From Psammoneis japonica (lineage: Eukaryota), in the NCBI GenBank assembly GCA_008632985.1, contig QPGO01000155.1, positions 1-64,000 of the forward strand: 64,000 bases of DNA. The letters run 5' to 3'. Within the stretch, counting starts at the first letter, position 1; each line of letters begins with the position of its first letter. The notes beneath the pieces were generated by a model that made no database searches, was not told where the DNA came from, and saw only the letters and a list, made by a program, of their open reading frames with translations. The position numbers were made by a program, and so were the translations under genes. This document shows positions 3,729-28,561 of the stretch, in pieces.

Positions 3729-3824
3729 CACACAATTGCTTGGGATTGATTTCACCGGCACAGTCAGGGTTCGGCGGATGTGTTTGTTGACAGAGTCAAT
3801 CGAAGCACAGCTTCGTAAATGACA

Positions 3825-4990: not shown

Positions 4991-5229
4991 CTGGTCGTGA
5001 TTTTGTTGCATTGCATTTGTCACTTTTGTCCTAGAGAGCTCATCTCTGTGGCATTGTTTCTGACTTCAGTCATTGACAGCGTGTTCCACAGGGCACGCAA
5101 GTGCGACTGCTGCAGCCACTCTTGCGACTGCTGCTGCAACTCTTGCTGCTCGGGATCCATTGCAATGCCGAAAAGAGGGGGGAAGGGGAGAACAAACCAT
5201 GATGATGACCGGGCCACATTTGTTGTCTA

Positions 5230-8200: not shown

Positions 8201-10024
8201 TTGTGCGAACCCAGATGACGTCGGCCAAATTCAGCTCCAAGATTTCCTTCCCTCCGCCAAACACTCCTCATCACGCGCTTCGCTCGCCAAGAACAAAAAA
8301 CAACGCAACGACACAATGATGGTGTCGCTCCCAAGAGCAGCAGAAGCAATGCGGCATTTGAGCCACAAGCTGCCACAAGCAAACACACCACACGCCAAGG
8401 CACCAACAGAGAGACAGCTCGGGTGCTGATGCTGCAGACAGCATTCAGAAGAGACAGCACAGGCGACGAAGCCACCCTCGTTGACCCAACTTCTCGACTC
8501 GAATGGTCGACTCAGCTTGTTCTCTTGGTGGCTGTGGCATCCTTTGGTGGACCCAAATGCAAGTTTCTCCTTGAAGATTTGTTTTTGCTCGAAAATGACT
8601 TCAACAGTGGTTCTGCTTGCTTTGGTCGTGCACCGTGCCGGTTCCAGGTTGCGAGTGCTCGGAAGGTGCAAGTCCCCTTTCTGCTGCGCGATCATGGTTC
8701 CATCGGTGTGCAAATGTGGCCAGAAGACAAACCACTGGCAAGGGGGATGAATGACATGCTGCCAGAGCTTCTTTCAGGTGCTTGTGAAAGCCTTCGAGCT
8801 GCGAAGTGCCACGAATTCAATGCATGGTTGTTTTCCCACTCGACGGATCGGCTCGGATGTGGCAGCAGTCAAAGCCTGGTCTGTCGCTCACACATCCTTT
8901 TTGGACATGTTTGACAAAGTTGAAATGAACTTTCCAGGTTTCCTTTGAAAAGAGTGGTTCCCCCGACTTGGCGCACTTGACATTGGCAATGAATCGAACC
9001 ATGCTCTTGATTCGTGCCAAAAGATCGCGGGGTGGGGGCATTGTTCTCTCGATGTCCGCCAAGGTCTTGGACGACGGCCGATTCATCCTCTTTTGCACCT
9101 CCTTCTTTGCTTCCTCGTGATTGTTGTGCCACCTGCCATGCACATGGTTTGTGAGCTTTGCCGCCAGCTTCTCGACTTCAAGGTCCAGCCGCTCCTGATT
9201 GATTGGCAGCATGGAGTCACGAAGCAGTCCCGACGCTTCTTCATAAAAACCATGCTTCTTCTTCCAAGTGCTTTTGACATCCTTGAGAAAATGGAAGCAA
9301 TCCCCTTTCACACAGTTTCGTGCGAACACCTCGGCAGCTGCTTCATCCCCAGCAAGCAACTCAATGTCGCCGTCCTCGTGATCATGCTGCAGCACTGCAA
9401 ACTGGAGCTCATCATCATCGTTTTTGTTTCGAGAGCCATGTGAGTCTGGGAACTCACTCAGGCTGCTTCCTTCTGGCAGGTGCCCTGTTTCTTCTTCGTT
9501 TAAGCTGAGGTCTCCCCTTGGTGAGCTGGAACCGGCAGGGTTGCTACAGCATCACATTTCGTGTGAAAAATTATGCGAACCCAGATGACGTCGGCCAAAT
9601 TCAGCTCCAAGATTTCCTTCCCTCCGCCAAACACTCCTCATCACGCGCTTCGCTCGCCAAGAACAAAAAACAACGCAACGATACGATGATGGCGTCGCTC
9701 CCAAGAGCAGCAGAAGCAATACGGTATTTGAACCACAAGCTGCCACAAGCAAACACACTATATACCAAGGTACCAACAGAGAGATAGCTCGGGTGCTGAT
9801 GCTACAGACAGTATTCAGAAGAGACAGCATAGACGACGAAGCCACCCTCGTTGACCTAACTTCTCGACTCGAATAGTCGACTCCGCTTGTTCTCTTGGTG
9901 GCTGTGGCATCCTTTGGTGGACCCAAACGCAAGTTTCTCCTTGAAGATTTGTTTTTGCTCGAAAATGACTTCAACAGTGGTTCTGCTTGCTTTGGTCGTG
10001 CACCGTGCCGGTTCCAGGTTGCGA
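5230..10024 (-). mobile_element. Rearranged DNA-transposon relic with DDE-type transposase fragments (MULE/ISL3-like DxxH; RGTSQLEGFH...RWN type)
   Basis: Minus strand reads DCFHFL...IERTMPPPRDLL...GEPLF...HVQKGCVSDRPG...MH*IRGTSQLEGFHKHL...HRWNHDR. The C-terminal part is present twice in diverged form (5241-6137, 6222-7141) and the core is present twice (7447-8025, 8817-9395). Confidence 0.55.
7279..10024. repeat. Near-identical 1370-bp tandem duplication (7279-8648, 8649-10018) with TTGCGA microhomology at the junctions
   Basis: Matching ORFs are offset by exactly 1370 bp (7447/8817, 7723/9093, 7950/9320). TTGCGA occurs at 7279, 8649 and 10019. Confidence 0.95.
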
Positions 10025-10719: not shown

Positions 10720-11904
10720 ATGGTATCGCCCTTTTGGTCCTTCGCCAACTCCAACTTTTCGTTGGAGACAGACAAGGCCAGTTACAGAGTCAAGGTAGTC
10801 ATGGCCCAAGTCGGGAGTATCCTTGGTCCTACTGTTGTGAATCGATACGGTCCTACCAAGTGTTACCTTGTTGGTGCACTCTGTGTGCTCTTGGCCGAAG
10901 AACAGCAAGGTGAAGGAATTCTTGGACCAAGGGCATTTTCGCCATTTCATACCTCTTCGTGGTTGAAGTCACCATTGATGATTACACCATGAAGGTGCTG
11001 GCGCGAGACTACTTTGCCGATCATCTTCATCCTTGTCTGAAGGTATGAGTTGCGACAATCCTCATAACGGAGACCACGGCATGTCGCAAGACGCAACCGC
11101 CGCCTTTACCACCATATGGGACTCTTCGGGCGAGCCACTAACACGCTATCCTTCCTCTTGAACGTGTTGGGAACGAATGCAGTTATTCGTTGTTTGGGAT
11201 TGTGCTTGACGCTTTTTTTGTTCCCCTCGCTCTGTCGGTCTGGTTGTCATTATCTTTTTCAGATTTCATGCGACCCTTTACGTTGTCTTTGCAGCCATAA
11301 TGTTGCCCAAGGCTTGTTCCTACGCCTTGAACAATCCCACGAAGGAAATGCTCTACCAACCAAACTCGCCTGCTGTCAAGTACAAGCCAAAGTCGTGGAT
11401 TGATATCTTTGGTGCACGTGGAAGCAAGGTAAGCGCAAGCTCGTCACACACTTGTCACCAAGAAAATGATGAAGGGTACTCACATCTACCTGTATATCCC
11501 TTAAATGTTTTACGATTTTTCTTTACCTTTAGGCTACGGGAAGTGTTGTGACGAACGCCTTCTCTAACTCTGCGTCGTCCTTGGTTACAAACGGTAGCTT
11601 GGTGGGAATGGCGGTCGCCTCCTTTTTGATTTGGAATGCCCGCTTCATGGTAAAGAAATTCGGTTAATACTCCGAGAGCGGATACATTGTCGGAGGCGAC
11701 AATGATGAGTATAACCAAATGAACAATGGTGAGAAGAACTTGGAAACGGCCATGGTGCAGACCGAAGACAAGGATACGAGTTGTGCCATTGCCGATGACA
11801 CCGAGGTTGGGTCGGAAGAAGAAGGAGAGTCCGTTGATGGCAGTGCTGCCAGCCTAGGCAGCGATATGGACAGCAAGGGAGACGCTCGAATACAAATGGT
11901 GTAG
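10720..11904 (+). pseudogene. TLC/NTT (ATP/ADP or nucleotide transporter) family pseudogene fragments
   Basis: [12 protein letters not shown]...[38 protein letters not shown]...[17 protein letters not shown]. Multiple frameshifts and deletions. Confidence 0.75.
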
Positions 11905-12339
11905 ACGTAGGTCGACACTTACTTTGAGAATGATTGCTTGTAGACGACCTACTCCATTCCCTTTTTCACGATGAGACACACAAGGTGCAGAAAGATACTT
12001 AGAGCATGATACTCTCTTTTGAGGATTTTTCAAATATTTGAATGATTACTACTAGCGCAATGATAGTCTCTTTAGTACCAACTAGAGGGTTTGCAAGGGA
12101 CTCCATATTTCTGAACGAAGTCAGAGTCGTGCGAAGGATTGCACTCTATCCCAAGTACAGTATGAGAATCCAGTGAATGTCATAGTGGTTTAGCGGTAAG
12201 TTTCCCAAAGATAACGATTCATGCATTCCGCCGGGTATACCATTTGGTTGGATCGGATATTTGCTTCGCGGCCAAACTGTTTCTGCATATCCTCAGCAGC
12301 TCGACGCATGGGCTGTAAAAAGAAGGGCGCGCGCATTCT

Positions 12340-12504
12340 AGCGAATAAATCTGGATGTGGAGGTGCGGCTACATCCACAGCTCCCTTACCGTTCGTAAGC
12401 TTAAAGATTCGTTATCGTATCATTCTCTCTAACGTTATAAGCTACTCTTCTCTCTTGTGGCTTGTACTAGTACCGTCTGTACGACCACCGCATCGGATTT
12501 TACT
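12340..12504 (-). repeat. 3' LTR (165 bp), TpA retained
   Basis: Direct repeat of 18868-19019. On the minus strand it is preceded by a short purine-rich tract (GCGGGGACCG) and a CGAGTCGG...CCGACTCG hairpin. Confidence 0.9.
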
Positions 12505-12651
12505 CGGTCCCCGCGAGTCGGCATTACTAGACCGACTCGTACTCTCGAAACATCCTCTTGTTAAGAGGTAAAACACACCCAGTTAGCCGCCAATTAGTTT
12601 GGCCTGGGAGGTCGCAAGACGTGGACGCGAGTCACAGGCCCTGGACCTTGG

Positions 12652-15600
12652 CTACCAAAACAGAAATGAACAAAGCTGCCATCGCTTCTCACCCTTCAAA
12701 ACTTTCGTCAACAGATCCGCAAGATTGGTCTCAGTGTCTTCCTTTCCGACCCTCGTGATCCCAGCCGCAACCGCTTCCCTCACTGAATGGTAGTTGATCG
12801 CGTTGTGCTTCTTGTGCAATGTGGATTTGGGAACACTTACATTCTTTACCACGCCACGATTGTCACAAAACACATTCGCCGGCCCATCAACCGGGACCCC
12901 AAACATGCGAAGCTTGCAACGCAGCGTGACAATCATCTCCTTACAAATCCGCATTGCCACTGACTCGCTCCCAAATGCAGACGTTTCCACTGTATTCTGC
13001 TTCTTGCTGAACCACATGGTTGGTGCATTGTTCACAAAGAGGACAACCCCAGAGTGCGACCTGCGAGTGACGACATTCCCAGCATGATTCGCATCGACAA
13101 ACGCACTGACAGTTGCCGGATTCCCGTGCGCCTTCGGCATTCTGGGCGGCATTTCCTCCTCGACTTCTCTGCAGAACTCCGTCCAGTCCGCCTTGGTGTT
13201 AAACAGTGACTCATCGATCTCAGGCACCTTCGGATCGCAACCCACTTGGCCCATGTTTGGGTGCTTCTTCATGTGCGCGAAGACGTGATGCAGCGCCTCC
13301 AAACGCCCTTTCCTCGGGTTTGCCTGACATTGAGACAACAAAGACACTTCAAGCAGCACATCAATGCGCCCAAGTTCAATCGCCCACCTTGCTGTCCCAA
13401 TCAGCTGCAAGTGTCGCGACAACAGTTCTGGCCCCAACTCATCCGTCACGTCCAACTCCGGTTTGCAGTTTGCTGGAAACGGGCCCTTTGCGTTGTTCTT
13501 GAGAACCGCACCATTGCGGTCCTCCGTCAGCAGGTCCTCCACTGTCTTAATTGCATTCTTGATGTGCGCCCATGGAGAGCTGGCCCAAATCATTCGCCCA
13601 TCTGGAGTCTGTGCCTTCTCGATCGTGGCGCCCAGGCATGTCTCAGGTTCACCTTCGCTTCCGGGTTTGATTTTGCAATGCGACAAAATTGCTTCGCAAA
13701 TTGACTTGCCTTGGTGTGATGCGATCAACACATCATCGACACAGACCAAAAGCATCTTGTGGTGCTCGTGTCCGTCCCCGCGAGCCGCGGCATGCAGGCA
13801 AACGTCTGGATCTGCTGGAGTCGGCTCGAAACCCACATCGCGGAGTGCAGAGGCAAATGCTGATCGCCAAGAAAACCCCGCGCTCTTCAGTCCGTAAAGT
13901 GCTCTGACAACAATTAACACGCACCCTTTGAACTCACCGCACTCAGTGCCACCCTCAAACCATGTCTTCTCAGCACACGGTGCATTCAAATGTGCATTCT
14001 CCAGGTCAATTGCAGTGACATCAACGCCGTTGAGCGCCGCCAACATGAGAGCAATGCGAATGCTGTCTCGGGAAACCACACTGGAGCACACAATCAAATC
14101 TGGGGCTGCAGCAGCATGTCCGCCCGCAACAAACCTTGCCTTGCGAGTGAAGCCCATCTCAACGTCGAAGACCATGTGACACTGGATTTCCTGGTGACCT
14201 CGCAACGCATTGCTCTTGCCCTTGCGAACCTCCTCGGGTGTCTCACCTTTGTGTTTGCGCCAGGCGACCTTTGCCTTGCTCATTTCCTTGTTGATTGCTC
14301 GTGCCCAGTAATCTGTCCCCGTTTCTCTGTCGATCCGGAGTGCATCATCCACACTCTTTGGCAGCATGACCCCAAACTTGTGCATCGTGCGCCAACACTT
14401 TGACTTGGCCTTGGAAATGGTCCGGCTGCGCTTGCGCAAAACATGTGACACCCTCCAAGCAAACGCTGGTTCATCAGAGATCCGGTTTGCCACTGCGCAT
14501 TCGTCAACTTCAATCGGGTTAGACGCCTTGAGGTCTTTTAGCTTGACCCAGCTTGTGCTCCCATCGCGCCAGAGTGCCAGAAGCTCCCATCCCTTTGTTG
14601 TGGCCTTTTGTTTAACCTGCCCACCGGCTGTCGTGACCGTGCCATCTGCGGCTTTCCGGTGGTCCTGAATCTCCTGCAAGATGGAGAATTGACGCCCCTC
14701 CAAGTCGACCTGAGCATGCATGTTCTTGGCAATGATGTTTGCAGCACACTTGTCTGTCGTGCCATCGGCAAACTCGACCTCATGCTCCCTCATGTCAAAC
14801 AGTGAGTGCTGGTGCCGCCGACCCAGGGGCCTGCCATCGTTGCCGCGCGCTTGCTTTGTGACTGCCCCACGCCTTTCACCCTCGGTGCCAACGTCCATGA
14901 TGAGCTCCATGCCAAGATGTTGGTCGACAACCTCCTCGTCATTGTTGTCTGGGCACTCACCATCCTGCAGCATGTCACCGCACTCCTCGTCGCTTGGGGT
15001 TGCGCCCCCTTCGCATTGGATCCCATCGCTTCCATCGATTGCAACATCGTCCAAACAGAAAGCCGGTGCTGCCTCGTCGCCCTCAACCACAAAGTTCGTG
15101 TCGTCAAGTTGCCAAGTCAAGGCCTCATTGAAATTGTTGATCTGCTTCCGCTTGTCCAACTCAACACAATCGGCCTGCACAACGTGCTCCACTGAGGTTT
15201 TCGACACCAACTCACCGCTCTCGGTGATGATCCAGCAGCACATGTCGGACCCAACCTTGTGCGACATGCCAAGCCAATGCCCAAGCCGCCTCGGATCGTC
15301 TGTTGCATTTGGCTTGTCTGGTCGGTCCCACCACCATGCTAAGTCGCAGAACCTAAAATCCAAGCACTCACCAATCTCTGGTGTTTGCCCAGTCACTTCC
15401 TCATGTCCGGTCCTGCAGTCACGTCCTCTGGCCATGTGCGACACCAGCTCTGACTCACACACAAGTCCAAAATCCCATGATCGCTTTGGCACTTTCTTCT
15501 TCATCATCCTGGGTCTCCAGCGCTTCACAAGGAATCCAATCTCGCGTTCCGCCACACAGTTCTGATTCTTGCGTCCCTGTTCCGAGTTTTGGAGCTGAGC

Positions 15601-15810
15601 GCGCATGCGCCTTGCGTGTTTGACGAACTCTGTGTTCTTGCCGGTGAACTCTCCAGCACCGTCCGTGAGCAATGTCTCAGGCACACCAACGTCATCCGTA
15701 AAGTCGATCAATGATTGCCCTGAGTCTGACCTGGCTGCCATGGGAACAACTTTGACAAACTTCCCCTGAGTGCAAACGTTCGCGCACGTGTTTCCCAGTG
15801 ATGACTTCAC
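12652..15810 (-). CDS. Copia pol (integrase core, reverse transcriptase, RNase H); catalytic YVDD reads CVDD
   Basis: LLTDGAGEF (integrase); TRKARFVAGGH, RALYGLKSAG and LLVCVDDVL (RT); AFVDANHAG...RRSHSG, FCDNRGVV and NLADLLTK (RNase H). Confidence 0.93.
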   Translation of the reverse strand: MKSSLGNTCANVCTQGKFVKVVPMAARSDSGQSLIDFTDDVGVPETLLTDGAGEFTGKNTEFVKHARRMRAQLQNSEQGRKNQNCVAEREIGFLVKRWRPRMMKKKVPKRSWDFGLVCESELVSHMARGRDCRTGHEEVTGQTPEIGECLDFRFCDLAWWWDRPDKPNATDDPRRLGHWLGMSHKVGSDMCCWIITESGELVSKTSVEHVVQADCVELDKRKQINNFNEALTWQLDDTNFVVEGDEAAPAFCLDDVAIDGSDGIQCEGGATPSDEECGDMLQDGECPDNNDEEVVDQHLGMELIMDVGTEGERRGAVTKQARGNDGRPLGRRHQHSLFDMREHEVEFADGTTDKCAANIIAKNMHAQVDLEGRQFSILQEIQDHRKAADGTVTTAGGQVKQKATTKGWELLALWRDGSTSWVKLKDLKASNPIEVDECAVANRISDEPAFAWRVSHVLRKRSRTISKAKSKCWRTMHKFGVMLPKSVDDALRIDRETGTDYWARAINKEMSKAKVAWRKHKGETPEEVRKGKSNALRGHQEIQCHMVFDVEMGFTRKARFVAGGHAAAAPDLIVCSSVVSRDSIRIALMLAALNGVDVTAIDLENAHLNAPCAEKTWFEGGTECGEFKGCVLIVVRALYGLKSAGFSWRSAFASALRDVGFEPTPADPDVCLHAAARGDGHEHHKMLLVCVDDVLIASHQGKSICEAILSHCKIKPGSEGEPETCLGATIEKAQTPDGRMIWASSPWAHIKNAIKTVEDLLTEDRNGAVLKNNAKGPFPANCKPELDVTDELGPELLSRHLQLIGTARWAIELGRIDVLLEVSLLSQCQANPRKGRLEALHHVFAHMKKHPNMGQVGCDPKVPEIDESLFNTKADWTEFCREVEEEMPPRMPKAHGNPATVSAFVDANHAGNVVTRRSHSGVVLFVNNAPTMWFSKKQNTVETSAFGSESVAMRICKEMIVTLRCKLRMFGVPVDGPANVFCDNRGVVKNVSVPKSTLHKKHNAINYHSVREAVAAGITRVGKEDTETNLADLLTKVLKGEKRWQLCSFLFW

Positions 15811-15855
15811 CTTTGAAATTAGGGCATCGGCATGCCACGTCCCCTTTAGTCGCTT

Positions 15856-16938
15856 TCAGTGCAGGTCCAAGTGATCCACCCTGACGCGCCTTGACATGGG
15901 CCATGTTGACGTCCTGACACCCCGCTGAGTGGTCACATTAAGTGTGTCCTTTGCTGCATCTAGGCCGACGTTCCACTCACGCGCCAGCTCTTCAGGAGTG
16001 ATCTTTGAGTGTCTGTCCTGGGTCCTCAGTTCAGAGATCTTGCGCTCGCGCCTGTTGACATCCTCCCTGCATGTGCAGGCAATCTTCACAGATGCAATCA
16101 TGCGGTCACAGAACGTCTGGAGGTTGTGAATCGGGGAAATGCTTGCCACAGTTTCTTCGACTTCTCCCCACTCTACCGCCTTGGACTGCTTTCTCTCTGC
16201 TCTCATCTCTGCAATCTCAGACTTGCGCATGTGAGAGGTCAAGGATTGAACAGTGCGCATTTCTTGTTGCTCACGAGTTTTGTTCGGGAAACCCATGTCC
16301 ACCTCTGTCGGGTTCCACATCTTGCCGGTCAAGATGATAACTGGCAAATTCTGCTCCTCCCAATCTGTTGGCACTCGAGTGTTGAAGGACACCACTGTCC
16401 CCGTGGTGTGGAAAGGGATGAAGGCTTCGTCCGTTGAAATGCCAAATGAGTCCTGAGGATCGTACGGGTTGTCATTGACTGGCATGTTGCATGCACGCAG
16501 TTGGTTTGGATTGATCAAGGAGTGTTCCATCTGCTGCCCAAACCATGACATCCAGTCGCCCACCAGCAGGCAATTCTTCGTCGTCTCCGGGTCTGTCCAA
16601 ACAGCGCAGCAACGTGTGACCGGAATCTCTTTAACAGGTTCATGCGATTCAAGGAAAGGACTTGCTTCGCATGTTTCATTCGTGAGCTCCATGAGTTTCC
16701 AATTTGCTCCGGCGCAGCAAGTGTCTGCATGTGTGTCACATTCATTTCGCAAAACGTGCCCCGGCTCTGTGTGTGTTGATGTCGTGGTCGCGTTTGCGGC
16801 CCTTGCACTGCACTTGGAAATCACTGAGATCCTGCGAGGTGTGCTTTTGAGGGTGTTTGGGTGGGGTTGAGACAGCAACAAGACCAAGATCAAGGGCAAA
16901 ACAAACACGTTTACGCAGCATGCACCAAGTGCTGTCAA
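15856..16938 (-). CDS. Copia protease / pre-integrase region
   Basis: NECDTHADTCCAGAN (aspartic-protease-like motif), SLINPNQLR, ITPEELAREWNVGLDAAKDTLNVTTQRGVR. The true start is probably internal or frameshifted from gag. Confidence 0.8.
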   Translation of the reverse strand: MTALGACCVNVFVLPLILVLLLSQPHPNTLKSTPRRISVISKCSARAANATTTSTHTEPGHVLRNECDTHADTCCAGANWKLMELTNETCEASPFLESHEPVKEIPVTRCCAVWTDPETTKNCLLVGDWMSWFGQQMEHSLINPNQLRACNMPVNDNPYDPQDSFGISTDEAFIPFHTTGTVVSFNTRVPTDWEEQNLPVIILTGKMWNPTEVDMGFPNKTREQQEMRTVQSLTSHMRKSEIAEMRAERKQSKAVEWGEVEETVASISPIHNLQTFCDRMIASVKIACTCREDVNRRERKISELRTQDRHSKITPEELAREWNVGLDAAKDTLNVTTQRGVRTSTWPMSRRVRVDHLDLH

Positions 16939-16956
16939 AGCTGTTGCCCCACACCT

Positions 16957-18411
16957 TCAGGACCGCCCTCCGCAGGCACCGCGCCCAAATCCTGCACCAT
17001 GGCGCCCACCATTGTCGTCGCTGCCTCCTCCGCCACCTGCGGTGCTGGGTGTCACTTGATGATCGTCCTGTTGCTTGCCATCCTTCTGCACTGCTGCCAC
17101 TTGGCGTTTGTTGTTGCGAGGGCCACCTCGCCCTTGCGAGTGGCCTCCACGGCCCTGCATGTGCTCCCCAGCTTGCCTCACGTAAGTCCAACCCCCGTTG
17201 GGTTTGAGCCCATCCCATTCGTCGGGAGAGAAAGTGCAAGTTGGGTCAGTGCAATCAACACCATTGATTGAGACCTCACCGCCGTGGCCACGACCGCCGT
17301 CGCGACCGCAGCCTCGACCACGTCCACGTCCTCCTCCGTCGCAGTTGCGACCACGTCCGGGGCCACCCGCAACCTGGGAGACCTTGCGCTTGTTCCTGCA
17401 ACACTGCGCCTCGAGCTGCGCTGGGCCGTGTAAACGAGCAACCTCTTTAGAGAAGAAGGTGCAGGCCCCTGCAAAGTCATTGCCAAAGCGTTCGCTGATG
17501 ATCGCCGTGCATGCGCAGAGGGCAACATCGTCCGTCTCAATCCCTTTTGGGAGTGCATCTGCTTTCTGGGAAGCGCTGGTTAGTTTGGAAGTGTACATTT
17601 CAAATGACAAGCACCTTTCATTTTTGTGATGCAGCATCTCGAGCTGCTTCTTGGCCAATTGAGTGTGCTTGCTGAGCTCGCCCTGGCCGTCACAGTGATC
17701 GGACCATGCCCAAAAGGCACGCCGCCTGTCCTTGGTGTCATTGAAAGACTCAATCCATGCGCATCCGTCCGTGTTGATGAGGCATTCCTTGAGGAAATGG
17801 CACACGGTCTTGTTGTCTTCCTCGAAGGATGGTCCGTTCAAGGGGACATCGAACATGCGCTGCTTGGCAGTGTCTGCAAATGCCGCCGGTGCTGCTGCGG
17901 GCCTCACCACATGACGCAAAGGTTCCTGATTGACCCCAAGCTTCTGAGATGAGAGGTTGAGGAACGCGTCTTCCATGGTCTCAAACTCGTCTGCGTCAAA
18001 CTTCGGCAGATGGCTCACTTTCGTGTCAGAGTCAGGACGATTGGCCTGAACACGCTTTAACTCACGTGCCACAACCAACGCCGCATGATCAAAGTCTGCC
18101 GCCACCAGGGCTTGTCCAAGCTTCTGAAGATCATGAAGCCACCAAACCAAGACTTGTAGATTTTTGAGCTGGATGGCACCTGTCACCACCCTGCCATCCT
18201 GCACGGCACGCCTGCCGGCGCGACTTGCCAACTCTTCGATGTCTTTGTCACTCTCCATCAGGGCTGAGTCTTCCAGGGTGTCAAATCCATCGTAAAAGAC
18301 GAGAGGAGCCCTTCCTCCTTGATTGGCAAAGCCACACACTTGCAACACGGCATCAACATTGTCAGCCGCTGCCAAAGCCGCAAGGGCTGCTCCTGGCGGG
18401 GCTGCTGCCAT
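16957..18411 (-). CDS. Copia gag-like ORF with an RGG-rich C-terminus
   Basis: 484-aa ORF between the PBS and pol; GGRGRGRG tracts; PLRHVVR...FEEDNKTVCHFLK...DGCAWI typical of diatom copia gag. Confidence 0.8.
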   Translation of the reverse strand: MAAAPPGAALAALAAADNVDAVLQVCGFANQGGRAPLVFYDGFDTLEDSALMESDKDIEELASRAGRRAVQDGRVVTGAIQLKNLQVLVWWLHDLQKLGQALVAADFDHAALVVARELKRVQANRPDSDTKVSHLPKFDADEFETMEDAFLNLSSQKLGVNQEPLRHVVRPAAAPAAFADTAKQRMFDVPLNGPSFEEDNKTVCHFLKECLINTDGCAWIESFNDTKDRRRAFWAWSDHCDGQGELSKHTQLAKKQLEMLHHKNERCLSFEMYTSKLTSASQKADALPKGIETDDVALCACTAIISERFGNDFAGACTFFSKEVARLHGPAQLEAQCCRNKRKVSQVAGGPGRGRNCDGGGRGRGRGCGRDGGRGHGGEVSINGVDCTDPTCTFSPDEWDGLKPNGGWTYVRQAGEHMQGRGGHSQGRGGPRNNKRQVAAVQKDGKQQDDHQVTPSTAGGGGGSDDNGGRHGAGFGRGACGGRS

Positions 18412-18853
18412 AGTTCTGTTGGTGAATGCAAGGGAAAAAGGTTAGGTTGTGAGATTTGCGCACGCACACTGGGTTGGTTGGGAGACTGAGCGCATCCGAG
18501 CGCCATGGCAATGGGTCCATGTAGCCAACCGGTGCTGGGTGGCCAAACCCAGACCATTTCTTTCTCATTGGGCACATGCCCGGGCATGCCGCCCCACGCT
18601 GCGCTGTCCAACACCCATTGACATGTTGGAAACTGTTTGAGTTGCAAGCGTGATCCCATTCTGACCGTAAATCCCATCGTCAAGTTCGACAATTTTCTCA
18701 TTCACACGTGGCAGATTCGCACACGTGGGACTCAGCACACTTTCTGCGGTCAGCTCCCAGGTGGTTCTCAACAACAGCGAATGTGTGCGTGTGTCGCTCT
18801 CAATGCAGGTCATGCAATCACAGTTTCAATGCGCCCAGATGCTCACTCTGAAG

Positions 18854-18866
18854 CCTGGCTCTGATA
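18854..18866 (-). other. Primer-binding site, tRNA-iMet-like (TATCAGAGCCAGG)
   Basis: Immediately inside the 5' LTR. Matches the familiar TGGTATCAGAGCCAGG PBS without the TGG. Confidence 0.75.
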
Positions 18867-18867
18867 A

Positions 18868-19019
18868 AGCGAGTGAATCTGGATGTGGAGGTGCGGCTAC
18901 ATCCACAGCTCCCTTGCCGTTCGCAAGCTTAAAGATTTGTTGTCGCATCATTCTCTCTGCTCTTCTCTCTTGTGGCTCGCATTGGTGCCGTCTGTGCGAC
19001 CACCGCATCGGATTTTACT
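18868..19019 (-). repeat. 5' LTR (152 bp), TpA largely converted, 13-bp deletion relative to the 3' LTR
   Basis: Aligns end to end with 12340-12504. Confidence 0.9.
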
Positions 19020-20010
19020 TGCTGGGACTGCTTTTCTTGCGACAACAAACAACCACCTGATGTGCCGCACCGCACAGCTGCGGGGATCTCTCCATTTGTG
19101 AGTCTCTCAAGCCGCTTGCCAGCCATGACACCCACACCAAGAGTTGTCATCGTTGAGCGCATGAGCAGTTTCTTCTGGACACGTCCAGCCATGCCTGATC
19201 CAAACAAGACCTCCATGCTTGTGGCCCCGATTCTGCATCCACAGGGACCATTGCAACCAGTGTTCAATCAGCATGGCTTCGGAGCGTCTCGAACACATTG
19301 TCATTTGGACCACTCAGGTGCTGACAGAGTCGATGGATCGAACAATTTCATGGCCTGTGGTTGACTCCAAAAATGTCATCAATTTCCCTCCCACTGTCAA
19401 TGATGGTGTCCACCCACTGGCGTTCTCTCTGTTTTGTCTTTGCTGTTTGTGTGAAGGCAACGCTGCATGAACCGCACTTGTCACAAGATTCAACATCAGA
19501 TCAAACGAATGTTCCGCTGCCCTTGTGCCGTCCTCACCCAGAGCTACAGCCAAAAGTGACGCATCCTTTTCGTCCTCTGCAAGAGAGAAGCATGCATCAC
19601 GTCGTCGCATGGGCGTCTCAACACAACGGTGTCCAGTTTTCTTTTTACCCTGCTTGTTCTCCCGAGCAAGAATCTGCCTTCAAATCCAAGATTTTGTGCT
19701 CTCGTTGTGTTCATCATTAGGAACAAAATGCTGTGGAAGCATCTGGACCACATGTCCACCATGACATCAGCACTCCACCTGCTTGATTGCTTCTGCCGAG
19801 GTCAACATTGACATGTCCTCCATTTTCCTGTGGACGTTCTGCAAGTGCGGCGCACTGATCACTCTCATGATGGATGGTTGCTGTTGTTGAATTGCTTTCA
19901 AAGCAACCACCGCAGCTCTTCTTCTCTGGCAACCGTCGCTCAAACTCAAGCCCCAGTCACCAAGAGCACTCGATTGTCACCACTCGAACAATCTTTGTTG
20001 CACCGAGTTT

Positions 20011-20312
20011 TCAAATTGCACTAAAACCGATCGCTGCTGCTGCTGTCCTGCAATGTTGTGATGCCGATCCTTGGATGTTCCCACCTGCGCGCCAAAACGA
20101 TCTCCCTTCTCCCGTCAAACAAATCACTGCAACCACACTTTCTGCATCCAACACCAACTGCATTCGGAAACATGTCTCGACAACAATTCGCAAACTTTTG
20201 TGTTGAAACAGTTCAGACGATCGGGACGATTCAACGACAGAATAACTGCATCTCCACCCGACTTGGGAAGACTGACGCGTTTCGACAGGATGGCCGCTGA
20301 CGACGCCACATG
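20011..20312 (-). pseudogene. Enoyl-CoA hydratase/isomerase-like N-terminal fragment
   Basis: AVILSLNRPDRLNCFN..., then a frameshift, then VICLTGEGRSF-x-AGGNI (crotonase LNRP and TGxGRxFCAGxD motifs). Confidence 0.6.
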
Positions 20313-20899
20313 CTTCTAGCTAGCTAGAGCTAGTCTAGGCAGAGAGTGGAGGTGCGATTTTTTGTTTCGTGCGCTTTCCGGCCGGCCGTCTTGGTCAGGT
20401 CGGAGGGAGAAATTTTCTGATTTCAAAATTTTGTGCTCCTGCATGCTTCCAAGTAACTGCACGTGTCGAACCATTCAACTCATGACAGCATCATCCACAT
20501 GACGAGAGAGGTTGCAATCGTTCATGGCAGTCTGACAAAGTCAAGAGCAACACGTGAGAAATGGCAGAATGCAAAATCCTCATTCTTGCTGCAGAAAAGG
20601 AGGGGTTGCGGTGTGCCGGCATGACGCTGTGTGCTGACAGGTGAAGATGTGCAAAGTCACCAAAGATGCAATTGACGACATTGTTGTGAGTGCTTCTGTG
20701 TGTTGAAGATTCTTCAGACTGCCTCCCCTTCCAATTGTTCTCACGCTTGACACACATTTCCAATGCTCATCGACGCAGCAAGCAAAAAAAATCAATTTGT
20801 CGGCAATTCCATCTTTCGCATCGATGGCGAAATCACGCAGCCGTGGAGCTTGCACACACAGGCCATTTGGCAAGATTTGCACCCTGTGAGAAATGTGAG

Positions 20900-23565
20900 G
20901 TTGCATCTTTGTAGAGACAATGCTGCCAAGGACACAGCTCTGTCGTCCTGTGCAAGGATGTGGAAGATCTGGATGACACGCGGACCCTCGCAACACTCAA
21001 CGCGAACGAGGAATGAAGGCTCACGTGTTTCCGCAGAGCTCGACATTCGGATCGAACTTTGTCATGCATTGGCTGCTCTTGCCAACATTCTTGAAACTGT
21101 TCGAGAATCTTTAAGCCAATCAATGAGATGCTTGAGGGATGTGCCGAGGCCACAGAAAACGGTGCCATCGACATTGTCCTCCGGATTGCGTCCTTGCCAG
21201 ACAGTTCTTTTGTGTTCCAAGGTGCTGATTTGATGAGCATGTCAACCTCATCATAGAATCTCTCCATTCTTTGTCATCAATCCCCCCTCTCCTGCTTTCA
21301 GAGTGTTGATCAAATTTTGCATGGTGCACATGTGGCATTTTGAAGGCTCTCGCTGCTTGCTCTGGTCCTGCCCCAGTCAAACTCAAAATTTTGATTTTAC
21401 GTGCCAACACTTGTGACAAAAAGGAAGACACTGCAATCAAATTGGGTTTGAAAAAAAAATGCCGTTGTTTCCAAGCATTCATGGCAGAAATGGCTGCAAG
21501 GAGAAACGCTTTTCTTGTGCTTTTCAATCAATCAGAGGATGTGACCATTCAGTTCTTGGCCCAAAACATGGATGACGTCGGCAAGTGCGGAGATGGATTT
21601 GCATTGCTTGTTCTGGAACTGACTTGCATGGTTTGTTGTTGTGATCCTGTTCACAAGTCACGATTTGTCCGGGTCTTGTGTCAGATGCTTTCCAACACGT
21701 CTGCTCCATGTCCTGCGAGGCAGTTTGGACTCCAGTGTTGTTTTCTTTGGTGACCACTCCCACTCGGGCTGCCGCTGTCACGTTTACAAACTTTTTGAAC
21801 AGCAAGAATGACAACAATTTCATGCTTGTTGTTCTCGAGCGATTGGAAGACCTCAAGACTTGTTGTCACAAGATCTTGCGGGAGCTGCTCATGGACATTC
21901 CTTTTGCTCTTAGTTCCCCAAGCGCTGACATCTGCAAGAAGGTCCTCGATGTTGCCATGGACATTGTCACCCCTCGTGACATCGCCAATGTGGTGTCAAC
22001 GCTCAAGGGCAAGATTGCCAAGACGGCTCAACAGTGGGACTTCACCATGGCGGAAGCTTGGGGCATGGCCCACCAGAACATGCTGATTCGGGCCATTCAC
22101 GGATGTGCTGTGCGATTCACCGATGTTGCCGAGTTGGTTGTTTTTAACCTCATGGACTTTTTGGACACTGATGGTGGCATGCAGGTTGCCATTTTGTCAT
22201 GAACCATTGTCGAACAGTGCCCCACACTGCCAGGATCAATCTTGCCCAAGTTGTTGGGTGCCGTTGAGGACATTTCTTCTGGCAACATTGTGTGCGCACT
22301 GGCATGCCTCTGGATCTTCGGTGAATGGTCGGATGCGGAGGAAACCAATGTGGTGACCTTTGAAACCACATTGGAACAGTCAAGTCCAACCCCATTCTTG
22401 ATTGCCAAGGAAGACAATCATGAAGAGAAGCACAAGGGAGAGGCTCCCAAAATGATCACCAAGAATGTCATGTTGGCCGACGGTGCTTGTGCAACCCAGA
22501 CCGTCCACCCCGAAGACGTTCTTCCGGATGAGTCAAACAATGAGATCATTTGCGCAAGATGTCTTGTGAACCGTTCTAGCTTCTTTTTGTCTTTGAGGGC
22601 TGCGGATCTGCCTCCAGTGGACCCATTGGTGATTGCGACAATCACGTCCAATGCGCTGCTTGTCATGTGTGGTGCAGTCAAAATGGCCAAGGCCAGCACT
22701 TCAGCTCGGCATCCCACCATGGCTGATCATTCAGAATGCATTGCACTGTTGCCGTGCGTTGTTGGAATCCAAGGCTTTGCTCAAGGACGCTCTCCTGAAC
22801 GATGGCAAAGCAACGTCTGCCCGGTTTCTCAAGACACTCAAAAAGAAACCAACATGCAAACTCGTTGCGGCACAGCCTGACAACTTGATCCACTTTCGTC
22901 AGTTGCTTCCCACAGCTTTTTAGGGTGGTGATGTCAACCTTGACAATGGAGACAATTTGGAAGGTGCCACTGGTCATGTTGGTGCCAACGATTTGCTTGG
23001 TCCTGGCTGAATCATGTCTGCCAACTCAGTTGCTTTGCGGATGATGTTTGCGCGGAGGACTTTGTCACGGTCCATGAACATGTTGGTGTCTTGGAGATTC
23101 TGGTGATCAATCGCACTCCCAACACACTGGCCAACTTGGTGGTGTAGCTTGCCACCATGGGTGAGACATGAAGAATGTCAAACGACCGCAGCATCAAAAC
23201 ATTGGCCCTCTCAATCAGGTCACCGTTAGCGCCTCCATCAAGGTCTTCTCCACCAAGATGCGGGGCATGTCTTTGGAGCCATTGTCTGTGAAGACACGGC
23301 GACATGAGAGAAGGGATGCATCAATCTCAAGGACATTCACATGGACATCAAGTGTTGCATTTGCCCCGCAACTTGTGCCGACGAAGCCTTTTGATCCATG
23401 TGGGCCGAGTTTGAATGGGAAAACAATGAGGTCGCCATTTCAACCTCATTCTCAACTTGTTGAATTTTCTCAATCACATTGTCGAGTCAACTAGCATGTG
23501 TTGCCTCACTCTGCATGACACTTTGGAAACGGCAAACTTCCTTGCCGCCAATCTCTGTGCAAGTG
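20900..23565 (+). pseudogene. COPB1: Coatomer subunit beta (beta-COP) pseudogene, hypermutated
   Basis: NDNNFMLVVLERL...LLMDIPFALSSPSADICKKVLD; LADGACATQT; DDVCAEDFVTVHEHVGVLEILVINRTPNTLANL; SMWAEFEWEN; FLAANLCA. Many frameshifts. Confidence 0.88.
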
Positions 23566-24394
23566 AGACAGTGCTCATTTTCAATTCGCGCTTCCCGATT
23601 GTTTCCCGGTGCGGTTTCGTGTTGAATGCTGTGCACTGCAACACGCTTTTTCACAAGCAGTGACTGTCACTGCCGGGAGACCAGGAGAAAGAAGCTTCTT
23701 GCGAAACTGTTGGCACCAACAAGGCACCTTGCGATGCACGCAGCACCATTGCAAGCATGGGTGCACACCCGTGTGGGATCAATCCTTGTGTGTGCTTTAG
23801 CGCAATGGTGCATCATGTCCATTTGCTGACAGAGCTCAAGTTTCACACTCTTTAAACCGTCAACTGACACAAGCGTGCTTTTGTTGTTTTTGGCAGTGAT
23901 TTTGGCAAAGACGCCCTCATTGTTAAGAAGGATGACAACGACATTGCTCTGAGTTTGGGAGGTTGCATCACCATCATTCAGAGGGCAATGCCCGAAGCCA
24001 AGCAGCAAAGCAAAGGATTGGGACAGAGCTCACAGAGTGTGTTCTGAGCCACAACACCACTTCTCAAGCATTGCACTGCATGGACTAGCCCCACCGGCAT
24101 GCATTTCATCCCACTCTCTGGGCTTCTCTACTTCGGTGTGGTTTCGTGGGCTGCTGCCACTGGAGGGTCGATCGCTTCCTTGACGCCAATCGGGAACAGG
24201 CTGCAGAGAACACAAAGTGCATTCTGAACTAAAAAATGCAACTTTAGCATGACACTGCATGTCTGGCCCGGCATGCGTTGATCATGCCATGGGCTTCTCT
24301 CCTTGAATTTGATTTCCATGGCTGCAACTGGGGTCGATTGCTTCCTTGCGCATGATGCCAATCGGCGATGGGCCACAGCCAAAACCGCAATGCT

Positions 24395-24610
24395 GGGCAG
24401 TGTGTGGATCAAGCCTCCCAGCAATGTTTGTGTTTGGCAATGACAAGATTGTGTGGGGATCCATTTGAACAAGAAGATTGAAAAGCTGCATGGATGACAA
24501 CGATGCCAGAGGCAGTGTGTGGATCAAGCCTCCTGGCAATGGTTGTGTTTGGCAACAACAAGATTGTGTGGGGATTGATTTGAATGAGAAGATTGAAAAG
24601 CTGCATGAAC
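24395..24610. repeat. Two tandem copies of about 115 bp
   Basis: GGCAGTGTGTGGATCAAGCCTCC...CAAGATTGTGTGGGGAT...GAAGATTGAAAAGCTGCATG at ~24396 and ~24511. Confidence 0.85.
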
Positions 24611-25489
24611 AACAAAGTTCTGCATTTGTTCTAGACGCCACAGAATGCTTTCCATCATCTGTCACCACAGAGAGGAGCCGCTGTCCTTCCTTGCACACAG
24701 ACAGAACCATTCCGCGATGCCAACACTTGCCTTGTTCTTTTCATTCTTGCACAATTCATTCTCCATGTCCAAAACAAGCAAGGGCTTTGTTCATTGACTG
24801 CCGCAGGTCTCAAGCAAATGCAAAAAGAGTCATCATGTCGTTGAAGCACCAATCATGCCTGGCACACATTTTGTTCCGGAAAACACAAGTCACGGGCGGG
24901 ACCCACTGTCACTTGAACCTTGGCATTTCAACAAAGACTGACTGCCACATCGTTCAAGTTGGGTGGTCGAACCGGTGTGAGGGCGCATTTCCATGTCAAC
25001 AAAATGAAGATGAAAAGCAATGTCAGCAAGCAAATCTTAGACAAAAAAGCAAAACAGACACGAAATTGACTTGCATTGGGGGTGCATTCAAATGTAGCGC
25101 AGCACAACAAGTGCACCCCATGGCATTTGAATTGCACGACAAACTCGTACAATGTTGGCAAGTCTTTGATGCGCACAAAAGCTGCATTGCACCATAAAAT
25201 GGAACAAAGAGATGCCCCCATGCATGCTCCATGTCCAAGAGCACAAAACAAGCAGCCAATGAGTCCAGTGGCGATTCATGATCTTTGCAGATCTACGCAC
25301 GACACGCCCAGCATTAGACGAAAGAAAGACGCTGCCCGTTGCTCCACCAAGCCCAGGCGAGCATCTCAAGAAGACAGGACAACGGGCTGCTTTCTCCTCA
25401 TTTCTCGCAACAACAACAATGCCCACCGGATCGCCGTTTTTGTCTGGCGACTCTGCATTCTCCAAGTCTTGATCCTCTCCTTCTGGCAC

Positions 25490-25995
25490 AATGTTGTGTT
25501 GCACTGGCCCATCATCCACAGGATCCTCCGAATCGTCCATCGGCATTTCCACATCTGGTGGATCGCTCAAGGCATCGTCAGGCTCCTTGTCTGCTTCCGG
25601 AACGATTTCCTCCTCGTCAGTGACAGAATTTTCATCATCATCAACAGTGGGATCAGCCAAGGGCTCCTCTTTGCCCTCTCCTTCTAGAACAATGTCATGA
25701 TGCAATGACCCATCATCCAAGGGATCCTCCGAATCGTCCATCGGCTCTTCCGCATCAGGTGGATTGTTCAAGGCACCGTCAGGCTCCTTGTCTGCTTCCG
25801 GAATGATTTCCTCCTTGTCAGTGACAGAATTTTCATCATCATCAACAGCGGGATCAGCCAAGGTTTCCTCTTCGCCCTCTCCTTCTAGAACAATGTCGTG
25901 ATGCAACAACCCGTCATCCACAGGATCCTCCGAATCGTCCGCAGGTGCTTCCACGTCTGGCGGATCGTTCAAGGGATCGTCAGGCTCCTCATCAT
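25490..25995 (-). repeat. 201-bp (67-aa) acidic tandem repeat, about 2.5 copies, within ORF 25088-26128
   Basis: GGATCCTCCGAATCGTCC at 25521, 25722 and 25923. Translation DDSEDPVDDG..HHDIVLEGEG..LADP.VDDDENSVTD. Confidence 0.9.
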
Positions 25996-26049
25996 GCACT
26001 TCAACGACTGCATCCACAGGAACCGCTTCCCCCTTGGTGACAGGATCAT

Positions 26050-26510
26050 CAGCAACAACAGCCTCGTGCGTTTCAATGGCCGCTGGAGTTCTCACCCATC
26101 CATGCCAGTGATCATGCCTTGGATTCAATGCATGTTCACGAATGCATCAGTCTTGCTTCCAGTCAAACTCAAGCAGCGCAGCAGCCAATTGCTGGTCATT
26201 CAGGACGGGAATGACACGGGTGTGTCGAGAGATCCAAAGACATGGTGGAGCGGCCACACCAGCAGGGACTGGAGGAGCATCAGCAATGGGTTCCTTGGCC
26301 ACTGCAACAGCCTCGTGAGTTTCAATTGCCGCTGGAGTCCGCACCCATCTACGCCAGTGATCAAACCTTGGATCCGTTTGATGCTCACGAATGCATCGGT
26401 CTTGTTTCAAGCCAAACTCAAGCAGTGCAGCAGCCAATTGCTGATCATTCAAGAGGGGAATGACACAGGTGTGTTGAGGCATCCGAAGACTTTGTGGAGC
26501 GGCCACGGGA
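26050..26510. repeat. Two tandem copies with a period of about 249 bp
   Basis: CAGCCTCGTG...CCGCTGGAGT...CAGCCAATTGCTG...GGAATGACAC at ~26060 and ~26309. Confidence 0.85.
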
Positions 26511-28561
26511 GCGTCACCAACGCAATGGTTCTTCAGCATGACTCGGTCCGGTTTCCATCTAATCCGACCGCGACCAACTGTTTTGCGCTTCAAGAGCAGC
26601 AGCCACAGGAACAGACACCGCAAGGGAATTTAGATGAAGCAGGTGAACCAATGCACGGTCCACACAACCACTGCAACCGCGAGAGCAGCCACAACAGCAT
26701 CGCACGCTCGATCCCAAAGAAGAGTGGCAAGGTCGTCGATTTCCACAATTCAGCAGGACAAGAAATGGACCTCACCACCAATCAACTTCAACGAGGAGTG
26801 TATGAATGTCCCAACAGGCAAGGCGACGAAAACTTGCCAGATCGCAATGACAAAGGACACGACAGCGTGAATCGTGCAGCGAATCTTGTCCCACGCTTCC
26901 GAAAGGAAACCGCCGACGATTCGGCCGTGGTTCTGCTTCCGTGAAAAACGCGTAGCAGGAGATTGATAAATTGAATGAGTAGCGCAATGTATGCAATCAT
27001 AATGGGGGTAGTAGTATCAATAAAGATAGATTTGCTTCAGAGTGTTTCAACGCAAGCAAAACTTGAAATTGTGGTTTGAGCGTGACGGTCGCTCGTTGTT
27101 GCGGCTGGCCCATTCGTGAATGCGTAGAAACTGTACTGGATAATCCTGTAGAAAAGCCGACAGTCAGTCACGCTTTTCTAGTTTTGACGGGAGGCGGGGC
27201 ACGTTTGCATTCGGTTAGTCGTAGGCTTCTTGGTAGGAACAATCAGAGATCGAGACTGACGATGGATTTATTCATAATGAATACTATCTATTTAGAGCTA
27301 TTTCTCGCTTCCTGCGTCCGTAGCGTATTCCCGGCACACTTTGGCACGTCAAGTAGACCATCCGCTTGGGGACTCAGACTCGAGAGCTCACACCATCCAC
27401 TCGTGTCCTCAGCATCGTATATTCGCAGATCGGTTGTTTCTTTCGTTGGACTCGGTCGCCTGCTCAGTTGAGGCCCATCATGTAGCTCATTCTCGGTACA
27501 AACAGAAGAGTTTTTCTCTGCGCTATCGAGTATGAAATGGCGCTTGCTGGTTTTGTTTGCAAACTTTGTCATTTGGGAACAGGGCTCTGGTGCCGAATTA
27601 TCAAGGAGCTTTCGACTGGCACCATTCGTAATGAGTCCCTTTTCCATCGTGACCATGTCCCATGTGCACCACGTCCTCGTCCTGCCTACCAAATACGGAA
27701 CGGGTGCATCAAAAGGACCAATTGCATTTGCGATAGTAAGACTGGGATATACAATCCTTGTCATTCAAATGGGACAATCAGACTCAACAAAGATTCCGCC
27801 ACGGGTTTCAGGAGCGATCGGTACTGTGAGCGCAACACAATACGTCCTTCTTGAAGCAGCATCCCCCAAAGCATTCGACAAGCTCAAGACGGAAAATAGT
27901 GGCCATGCATTCTCATTCTATCAGACCGAGTAAGCACCAAGAGTTTCACAAGAGAACACCGAGATTATTGCTTTTGTTGCGATCCGTTAATGCTTCGACT
28001 TGCCGCTACCGGGTAGACGGGAACCAGCAAACTTACGAAAGACACGGTGTGCGCTGCTACATGGACACACCAATGTATCTGAAATGCCTTGCGAATTACC
28101 AGAATATATGGAAACGTGTCAAGTCGTCGACAATGAACAATGAGGGGTATGTTAGCGTTGCCATAGAATTCCTTGGTGAGAGCTGTACAAGTCGCCGCTG
28201 CTCAATCCAATTCTATTCAGCGACAAACATCTGGGCAGCTTTCTTTCAAACAATTCTGATCTCGGCTCTTGACCAGCTATGGTCTCAGCTCACTATGGCC
28301 ATTTCTACATCATCATCATCCAACAAAGGAAATAGTGCATAACACCAAACGCCCGCGTAAACGCTTGAGATACGCGATGGAGATTCCCTGAAATCGTAGG
28401 TGGGCGGCCTCCGTAATCCGTGAGCGGTAGGTTGCCGGTGCTGTATTGTGGCAAAGTAACAAAACATGTCAATTTATACGCTTTATCATGGCACCGTCAA
28501 TATAGTTGATAGAGCACGTTTTTGACTGGGCAGTCGTTCGCTGCGTCAGGTTCTCGATTAA

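Follow-up and report, generated by a model that had tools for sequence, protein, structure and literature searches.

Probable post-integration loss of TpA from a dead Ty1/copia-type retrotransposon and its repeat domain in the diatom Psammoneis japonica

Results

Structure of the element

The window analysed here comprises the 64,000 bp at positions 1 to 64,000 of contig QPGO01000155.1 in the Psammoneis japonica assembly GCA_008632985.1, and carries on its minus strand, at 12340-19019, what is by its sequence a dead long terminal repeat (LTR) retrotransposon of the Ty1/copia type in a diatom nuclear genome. Nearly all of this element, together with the repeats that adjoin it, has lost the dinucleotide TpA (TA in the counts below), and its proteins have lost almost all of their tyrosine; a host-side conversion of TpA to TpG or CpA after integration is the probable cause.

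In order from its 5' LTR the element contains a primer binding site (PBS)-like sequence, a gag-like frame, a Pol frame in two parts, an untranslated stretch and a 3' LTR (Table 1). TTATCAGAGCCAGG adjoins the 5' LTR, and TATCAGAGC within this PBS-like sequence may correspond to the copia PBS motif for initiator tRNA-Met. The coding region forms a single minus-strand frame of 1930 codons (18441->12652), interrupted by two in-frame TGA codons only and closed by a TAG. Its last stop-to-stop section, 12652-15855, encodes 1067 aa; the 12652-15810 portion singled out by an earlier, sequence-only reading of this DNA corresponds to 1052 aa plus the stop. The 1067 aa piece matches the Pfam reverse transcriptase (RT) family RVT_2 at 51.7 bits against a cut-off of 31.6, and the 494 aa gag-like frame has no Pfam match. 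A D...E pattern (TDGAGEF, then AEREIG) can be picked out by eye at residues 64-107 of the 1067, and neither Pfam (E<=5) nor a PDB profile search made a call for integrase, protease or RNase H, intact homologues included. No target-site duplication was found: the 5-6 bases beyond the outer end of one LTR differ from those beyond the other, also when TA>TG/CA changes are permitted, though the LTR ends may be off by a few bases or mutated.

A public protein collection holds 1303 homologues of the element at E<=1e-3. The 120 matches listed are 46-65% identical to it and mostly 1300-1440 aa long, PF07727 is found in all 120, and those that carry a name come from Fragilaria crotonensis. Searches of the window with blastn and tblastn detected a distant copia remnant at 37.0-39.2 kb and no second copy of the family. 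This copia-like RT/RNase H remnant (36989-39227, plus strand) lies inside a block depleted in both TA and CpG, and is 28-53% identical by tblastn to the element and to the tyrosine-free relatives described below.

Table 1. Coordinates of the element, the TpA-erased blocks and the host genes in the window
Feature	Position	Strand	Remarks
3' LTR	12340..12504	-	TA-normal, unmutated twin; 17 TA over 12338-12504; found by direct repeat and pairwise alignment
3' untranslated stretch	12505..12651	-	weak purine run beside LTR; TA density normal to ~12600
Pol part 2: integrase-like region, RT, RNase H region	12652..15855	-	3 Tyr; TAG at 12652-12654
Pfam RVT_2 (copia-type RT) match	13699..14151	-	aa 569-719 of 1067; E 1.2e-13
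CVDD, RT active-site motif	13732..13743	-	Tyr (44/46 homologues) now TGT = Cys
In-frame TGA on Arg column	15856..15858	-	row 367 R>X, context CTGAA
Pol part 1	15859..16956	-	N-terminal 366 aa, 1 Tyr; aligns with N-termini of 1300-1440 aa homologues
In-frame TGA separating gag-like and pol frames	16957..16959	-	long homologue P0250 does not align across it
gag-like frame	16960..18441	-	494 aa, 3 Tyr, first Met at 18411
PBS-like sequence	18854..18867	-	immediately 3' of 5' LTR; includes TATCAGAGC
5' LTR	18868..19019	-	hypermutated; 3 TA over 18866-19019
TpA-erased domain	12600..26900	.	element minus last ~260 bp, plus adjoining repeats; TA observed/expected 0.05-0.19 per kb from 13001
TpA-erased blocks of window	1-9400; ~12600-26900; 32500-40800; 42900-44200; 55000-57500; 62500-64000
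Triose-phosphate-transporter family protein	41548-42720	-	host gene, TA-normal; <100 bp from block border at 42800
Lipin/PAH1-like phosphatidate phosphatase	47316-48743	-	host gene, TA-normal
Ion-channel domain protein	50127-51053	-	host gene, TA-normal
Exo_endo_phos domain protein	57791-59983	+	host gene, TA-normal

Loss of tyrosine codons

Three tyrosines remain among the 494 residues of the gag-like frame, one among the 366 of Pol part 1 and three among the 1067 of Pol part 2. The element has 0.28% tyrosine against a homologue median of 3.51% (range 1.71-4.28 over the 120 matches listed), and across the same matches cysteine stands at 3.49% in the element against a median of 1.18%, and histidine at 3.49% against 2.67%. 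Some 37 tyrosines would be expected in 1067 aa, and the probability of three or fewer is ~5e-13. The count of three in the 1052 aa open reading frame (ORF) had been made in the sequence-only reading and is correct, the survivors being exactly those in DYW, ALYG and INYH.

For a column-by-column comparison the first 60 matches listed were taken, those of at least 1280 aa were kept and the tyrosine-poor P0138 was excluded, leaving 46 homologues. The element agrees with them at 577 of the 714 columns that are at least 70% conserved. At that threshold 25 columns are tyrosine, where the element has cysteine in 15 (TGY), histidine in 8 (CAY) and tyrosine in 2; at a threshold of 50% there are 34 such columns, with 17 cysteines, 12 histidines, 2 tyrosines and 3 other residues. 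The 137 departures from conserved columns consist of 39 single TA>TG/CA changes, 23 single CpG>TG/CA changes, 18 other transitions, 28 transversions and 29 codons that need more than one base change. CVDD, NAHL, CSSVVS and LRCKLR, which had been named as former tyrosine positions, are all present, and the homologues have tyrosine there in 44, 45, 46 and 44 of 46 cases, respectively. The direction assigned to the change, TAY->TGY/CAY, likewise agrees with 23 of the 25 conserved tyrosine columns and, independently, with an LTR pair in which a TA-rich 3' LTR faces TG and CA in the 5' LTR (see below).

Codon usage over the 1930-codon frame carries the same mark, with TAT and ATA absent and TAC, TTA, CTA and GTA used 7, 4, 6 and 4 times. 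It extends across codon boundaries: after the 408 codons whose last base is T, the next codon begins with A in 13 cases and with G in 242.

Regional extent and sparing of host genes

Along the window TpA observed/expected (obs/exp) per kb is 0.00-0.19 in six blocks and 0.5-0.77 in the stretches between them, and TG and CA obs/exp rise to 1.3-2.3 inside the blocks. In absolute terms 172 TA occur in the 37,205 bp of the six blocks and 1110 in 25,405 bp of host-gene stretches. Most block borders fall within 1-2 bins of 200 bp, TA dropping for example from 14 to 0 at 42800 and from 19 to 2 at 12600. GC content is 0.51-0.58 per kb over 13-20 kb, compared with 0.45-0.49 in most host-gene stretches. 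The sequence-only reading had treated the change as a feature of Pol; it is not specific to Pol, every repeat block and non-coding DNA being affected.

ORFs with a Pfam match to a host function occur in TA-normal DNA only, and 12 long ORFs in the TA-depleted blocks have no Pfam match. The best matches of the lipin/PAH1-like ORF bear only diatom names (Thalassiosira, Mediolabrus, Pseudo-nitzschia and others, 34-42% identity), and those of the triose-phosphate-transporter ORF come from Craspedostauros, Cylindrotheca, Nitzschia, Fistulifera, Epithemia and Entomoneis (56-65% identity). These matches identify the host as a diatom that lacks close relatives in the protein collection, and not as Bigelowiella. 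Tandem direct repeats lie within the TpA-erased domain, with 201-nt units at 25467-26069, ~202-nt units at 26056-26506 and 105-nt units at 24396-24615. In the TA-normal flank beside the 3' LTR, two contigs of the public run X2 (its run type is a guess) skip 104 bases with GT..AG ends at 11426-11531, which looks like a spliced intron of a neighbouring host gene. Runs X2 and X3 do not cover the element, and nothing on expression was drawn from them.

Target motif

Survival of TA in each of the 10 NTAN classes was estimated by comparing the depleted blocks with host-gene DNA or, alternatively, with 76 TA-normal relatives (78 metagenome loci less L063 and L040, see below). It ranges from <0.01 for ATAT up to 0.2-0.45 for TTAA. 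An additive two-strand model, in which the 3' neighbour of each A determines its rate (2.6-2.7 for T, 1.5-1.6 for C, 0.55-0.6 for G and 0.4-0.7 for A), correlates with NTAN survival at 0.99 under either reference. The apparent duplex target motif that this fit shows is 5'-TAY-3' / 5'-RTA-3' (Y, pyrimidine; R, purine), and with such a target the tyrosine codons TAT and TAC are the most exposed of all, hence the erasure of tyrosine.

Replaced and surviving codons carry further context. Among the polarised tyrosine columns at the 50% threshold a purine precedes the codon in 11 of 12 histidine outcomes and in 9 of 17 cysteine outcomes (Fisher p 0.043). All 7 surviving tyrosine codons are TAC, and a pyrimidine precedes 5 of them. 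Cysteine and histidine outcomes alternate along the ORF in ~10 runs, against ~11 expected by chance (counted by hand), with no long strand-coordinated tracts.

Stop codons and CpG decay

Conversion of TA to TG or CA removes TAA and TAG and makes neither, so a frame subject to it stays long. That the process is unable to create TAA or TAG, as previously proposed, is borne out by the non-coding frames of the element, which hold 5-12 TAA+TAG each compared with 19-53 in a host stretch of equal length. Because these codons are nearly absent, stop-free stretches of 100-283 aa are present in all six frames. One such stretch at 14714-15565 (plus strand), and those in other frames of 12.6-27 kb, are liable to false gene calls.

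The same proposal held that Pol was inactivated by Tyr->Cys/His replacement with no stop codons. The loss of tyrosine stands; the absence of stops does not, since a TGA occupies a conserved Arg codon (15856-15858). From the alignment this TGA is best read as a CGA>TGA CpG transition, a nonsense mutation in pol, in which case inactivation would not come from tyrosine loss alone. CG obs/exp is 0.68-0.89 in the element and 0.46-0.89 in the whole block around it, and falls to 0.09-0.29 in the TpA-erased intervals 33001-41000, 43001-44000, 55001-57000 and 63001-64000. TpA loss is near saturation in all blocks and CpG decay is uneven, which argues that the TpA process is much faster, and the repeats appear to undergo two separate decay processes with different clocks. 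CpG decay is, by its sequence footprint, the slower and ordinary one running alongside, to which at least one nonsense mutation is apparently due, along with ~23 other amino acid changes at conserved positions.

Direction and timing from the LTR pair and sister copies

At 152 aligned sites the two LTRs, assumed to have been identical in sequence at birth, show 14 differences. Ten of these are sites with TA in the 3' LTR and CA (7) or TG (3) in the 5' LTR, the reverse being seen at none; 2 more are CpG-type and 2 are of other kinds. Because both LTRs are copied from one template at integration, such one-way differences place the change after integration. Roughly 10 of 13 TA sites changed compared with 2 of 152 other sites, small numbers that nonetheless suggest a TpA change rate some two orders of magnitude over background.

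The two LTRs also lie on opposite sides of a domain border. TA density remains normal across the 3' LTR and for ~95 bp beyond it, then collapses at ~12600, inside the element, and the depleted domain continues past the 5' LTR for ~8 kb into unrelated repeats, to 26900. From the opposite fates of twin LTRs we infer that sequence alone does not select the target and that position matters, be it through a chromatin domain or through the distance to unique or active DNA; a model of homology pairing in which repeat edges are spared is an alternative to position-based targeting.

Sister copies were seen in the public sequencing run X1. It contains five exact pieces of the element (308-1234 bp, 0 differences, word depth 19-35), together with many contigs that are 90-99% alike and differ nearly always by transitions. 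Contig differences number 80 for A>G, 85 for C>T, 70 for G>A and 81 for T>C, each type of transversion occurring 2-7 times (the site-by-site detail covers 40 of 369 differences, 22 of the 40 inside the element). At tyrosine codons 680 and 1131 a sister copy has cysteine where the window has histidine; Val codon 1013 reads GCA in the sister and GTG in the window, and at position 13490 the sister has kept TA. Differences of this kind indicate copy-specific mutations that arose in DNA after the copies separated, and the differing residues indicate that no recoding common to all copies by descent underlies the Cys/His states. The sequence-only reading had named active copies with CVDD as the observation that would speak against it; none was seen, and the sister copies differ at the same sites. 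Together with the LTR pair, these comparisons show what is apparently a TpA change at the DNA level, made after integration.

The signature in relatives

TA obs/exp is 0.47-0.93 in 77 of 78 related metagenome loci, a set with some bias against mutated copies in that each pattern used for the scan had one position that accepted Y or C and did not accept H. Locus L063 (1-6400) has a TA obs/exp of 0.14 and a CG obs/exp of 0.27, and keeps a 1423 aa open pol frame with 1.3% tyrosine. L040 (1-2085), whose accession prefix is common to L063, has CG at 0.03, TA at 0.47 and 4.2% tyrosine, and the pair indicates that TpA and CpG decay can occur separately. Three fragments (P0368, P0387, P0357) out of 270 homologous proteins, made up of the 120 matches and 150 representatives, have <1% tyrosine, at 0-0.4%, with 3-4.7% cysteine and 4.5-6% histidine; the full-length P0138 has 1.7% tyrosine. 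Motif changes like those of the element (NAHLN, ALCGL, LVHVDD) occur in the tyrosine-poor homologues, which at 41-55% identity to it belong to other copia families. Judged from the 77 loci, TpA erasure is evidently not a family trait.

Discussion

Known systems

TpA>TpG/CpA hypermutation has been described for integrated DNA of nucleocytoplasmic large DNA viruses (NCLDV) and virophages in Bigelowiella natans (Mettrop et al., 10.64898/2026.01.13.699255). According to the text of that preprint, two integrated viral regions gathered 231 mutations in Illumina-sequenced mutation-accumulation lines, of which 230 were A>G or T>C and fell without exception on TpA, at a rate of ~6e-7 per site per generation; 324 low-TpA coding sequences were enriched for RT and DDE Pfam domains, and the authors name an ADAT2-like deaminase as a candidate, with adenine deamination as the proposed reaction. 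The likeness to the present case, as far as that account goes, lies in TpA-only changes to TpG or CpA (A:T>G:C), in discrete blocks of mobile or foreign chromosomal DNA with normal flanks. TpA restriction, confinement to blocks with host genes spared, and action after integration are all found here. The hosts differ, a diatom (stramenopile) as opposed to a chlorarachniophyte (rhizarian), as do the targets, here an LTR retrotransposon and all repeat blocks of the window and there viral inserts. Erasure is near saturation here, with a TA obs/exp of ~0.1 and TG and CA at 1.5-1.7, compared with a TA value of 0.45 reported for the B. natans NCLDV block, and new mutations were measured directly in B. 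natans whereas ours are read from sequence comparison.

The main text of the preprint, supplements aside, contains no mention of a 3'-neighbour preference, trinucleotide, tyrosine, stop codon or diatom. Full-text literature searches turned up no account of TpA hypermutation in either diatoms or LTR retrotransposons. In their available text, the paper of Maumus et al. 2009 on CoDi elements (PMC2806351) does not mention hypermutation, dinucleotide or repeat-induced point mutation (RIP), and a 2025 preprint on diatom transposable elements (TEs; 10.1101/2025.10.24.684338) does not contain the relevant terms. The element resembles the Ty1/copia CoDi elements described in the former in its RVT_2-type RT, short LTRs and diatom host. 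It represents a new host lineage and a new target class for a kind of hypermutation described once (2026), to which it adds a TAY target, a position-dependent fate of twin LTRs and a footprint at the protein level.

Other systems share parts of the pattern. Like fungal RIP, the process is a regional, post-integration, dinucleotide-specific transition hypermutation of repeats that is read from LTR and copy comparisons, and it would be an analogue in genome defence. RIP runs in the opposite direction, C>T mainly at CpA, and makes TpA, stop codons and AT-rich DNA, whereas here TpA and stops are lost and GC rises. RIP itself is ruled out by direction, TpA being erased and TAA/TAG depleted. Vertebrate APOBEC editing also leaves deaminase footprints fossilised in genomic LTR elements, yet in the account seen it makes C>U changes on minus-strand cDNA, is strand-specific and leaves both LTRs born alike, unlike the A:T>G:C, both-strand, post-integration changes seen here (PMC4866542). 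Bacterial TadA is described as editing mRNA within UACG, with Tyr>Cys as the result (UAC>UIC; PMC11472039). TadA/ADAT and the present process would share an A with U/T before and C after, and a typical outcome of Tyr>Cys; as described there, TadA/ADAT acts on RNA loops and needs the G of UACG, whereas the substrate here is DNA and TAT is hit more than TAC.

Proposed mechanism and alternatives

We consider it probable that the dead copia element was converted from TpA to TpG or CpA by the host, after integration, across its whole repeat domain. The comparisons above show the apparent pattern and the direction in which it arose, and also its origin after integration, its spread over whole blocks and the trinucleotide that it favours. 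A host-side process would act on DNA, making A:T>G:C transitions on either strand, with 5'-TAY-3' on either strand as its preferred target. Cysteine would arise when the A of the coding strand changes, and histidine when the A opposite the T changes, for which a purine before the codon would be required. An enzyme-driven defence may lie behind this, and since TadA editing of UACG resembles the TAY preference, the most economical guess as to its nature is an adenine deaminase of the TadA/ADAT type with DNA as its substrate, in line with the proposal made for B. natans.

Several observations temper these conclusions. The lack of a target-site duplication and a 13-bp indel between the LTRs leave their identity at birth an assumption. 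X1, the only run that contains the sequence, is probably the source sample of the window itself, and so offers no independent proof against systematic base-calling error. Some changes may have been inherited from a mutated parent copy, and among contigs 95-99% alike alleles and paralogues were not told apart. TG/CA differences between copies fit either TA or CG ancestry unless polarised by homologues, as was possible at only 4 sites, and the context fit places 4 parameters on 10 classes with proxy reference compositions.

An unlikely variant retains the same regional process and puts the primary lesion on the thymine of 5'-RTA-3', for example through T modification and error-prone repair. Thymine hypermodification with a TpA preference exists in other protists. 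Sequence cannot separate T>C from A>G on the opposite strand, and the fitted motif is equally RTA; set against this, the sole experimental precedent, as reported by Mettrop et al., proposes adenine deamination with an ADAT2-like candidate, and the UACG editing of TadA (PMC11472039, in the account seen) resembles the TAY preference, neither of which excludes a thymine route. A misreading of the DNA is a good deal less probable. If modified TA in silenced DNA were miscalled as TG or CA by the sequencing or assembly, the true element would be intact; long reads are known to carry systematic errors at palindromic sites that are modified, and the platform used for the assembly and for X1 is not on record. 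The five X1 pieces are nevertheless identical to the window at a depth of 19-35, and such an exact 31-mer depth needs accurate reads. The 1930 codons hold 0 frameshifts, CpG is not raised (CG obs/exp 0.68-0.89) as independent miscalls of both bases would have it, and the same signature is present in other assemblies, in L063 and the three tyrosine-free homologues. In B. natans, moreover, the phenomenon was found with Illumina reads, by the account of Mettrop et al.

Origins before integration, or by selection, are improbable to a still greater degree. If an ADAR-like enzyme had edited A to I in the RNA of the retrotransposon ahead of its reverse transcription, each new copy would have been born mutated, and differing sister copies could then stem from differently edited RNAs. 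Yet both LTRs derive from one RNA and still show 10 TA differences, all in one direction, and the depleted domain ends ~260 bp inside the element and extends 8 kb into non-homologous repeats; this asymmetry and extent exclude RNA editing of the ADAR type as the main cause. The coding strand furthermore shows both TG and CA outcomes. TAG is refractory here, whereas ADAR prefers to have G on the 3' side. In favour of RNA editing, A>G beside a 5' U is the ADAR neighbour preference as given by Mettrop et al. Hardly credible at all is a living lineage recoded to avoid TA, under selection against UpA or a TA-cutting nuclease, and functional with Cys/His in place of tyrosine. A long frame free of frameshifts would suit it, as would the 1423 aa frame kept by TA-depleted L063; but which residue replaces tyrosine depends on the route of mutation and on the adjacent base and not on the function of the site, and the same codon differs among sister copies. 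The tyrosine of the RT active site is gone, a conserved Arg codon is now TGA, and non-coding LTR sequence and unrelated adjoining repeats are depleted equally, while the element's own 3' LTR is undepleted.

Implications

Post-integration TpA conversion in P. japonica would make diatoms the second eukaryotic lineage, and this the first diatom, with TpA-specific hypermutation, turning a single-species curiosity into a candidate for a widespread defence. TAY on either strand is a trinucleotide fingerprint that any candidate enzyme must reproduce, and the opposite fates of initially alike LTRs point to targeting by position or chromatin.

For genome annotation, dead elements with very long ORFs, and spurious ORFs in six frames, mislead gene and TE calls that are based on ORF intactness. 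Dating by LTR divergence is inflated as well, 14 of 152 sites differing here but only 2 of 152 if changes at TA and CpG are left out of the count. Tyrosine-poor, Cys/His-rich Pol sequences offer a cheap screen for the process in other genomes.

A wider reading, which we put forward tentatively as possible though short of probable, is that diatoms possess an active defence that is the mirror image of RIP, in which chromatin position would direct a TadA/ADAT-like DNA adenine deaminase with TAY specificity to silenced repeat domains, where it would kill transposons through the loss of tyrosine and other codons that contain TA, with no stop codons made. If true, the occurrence of such a defence in a stramenopile as well as in a rhizarian would point to an immune mechanism that is either old and common to the stramenopile-alveolate-rhizarian (SAR) group as a whole or repeatedly acquired.

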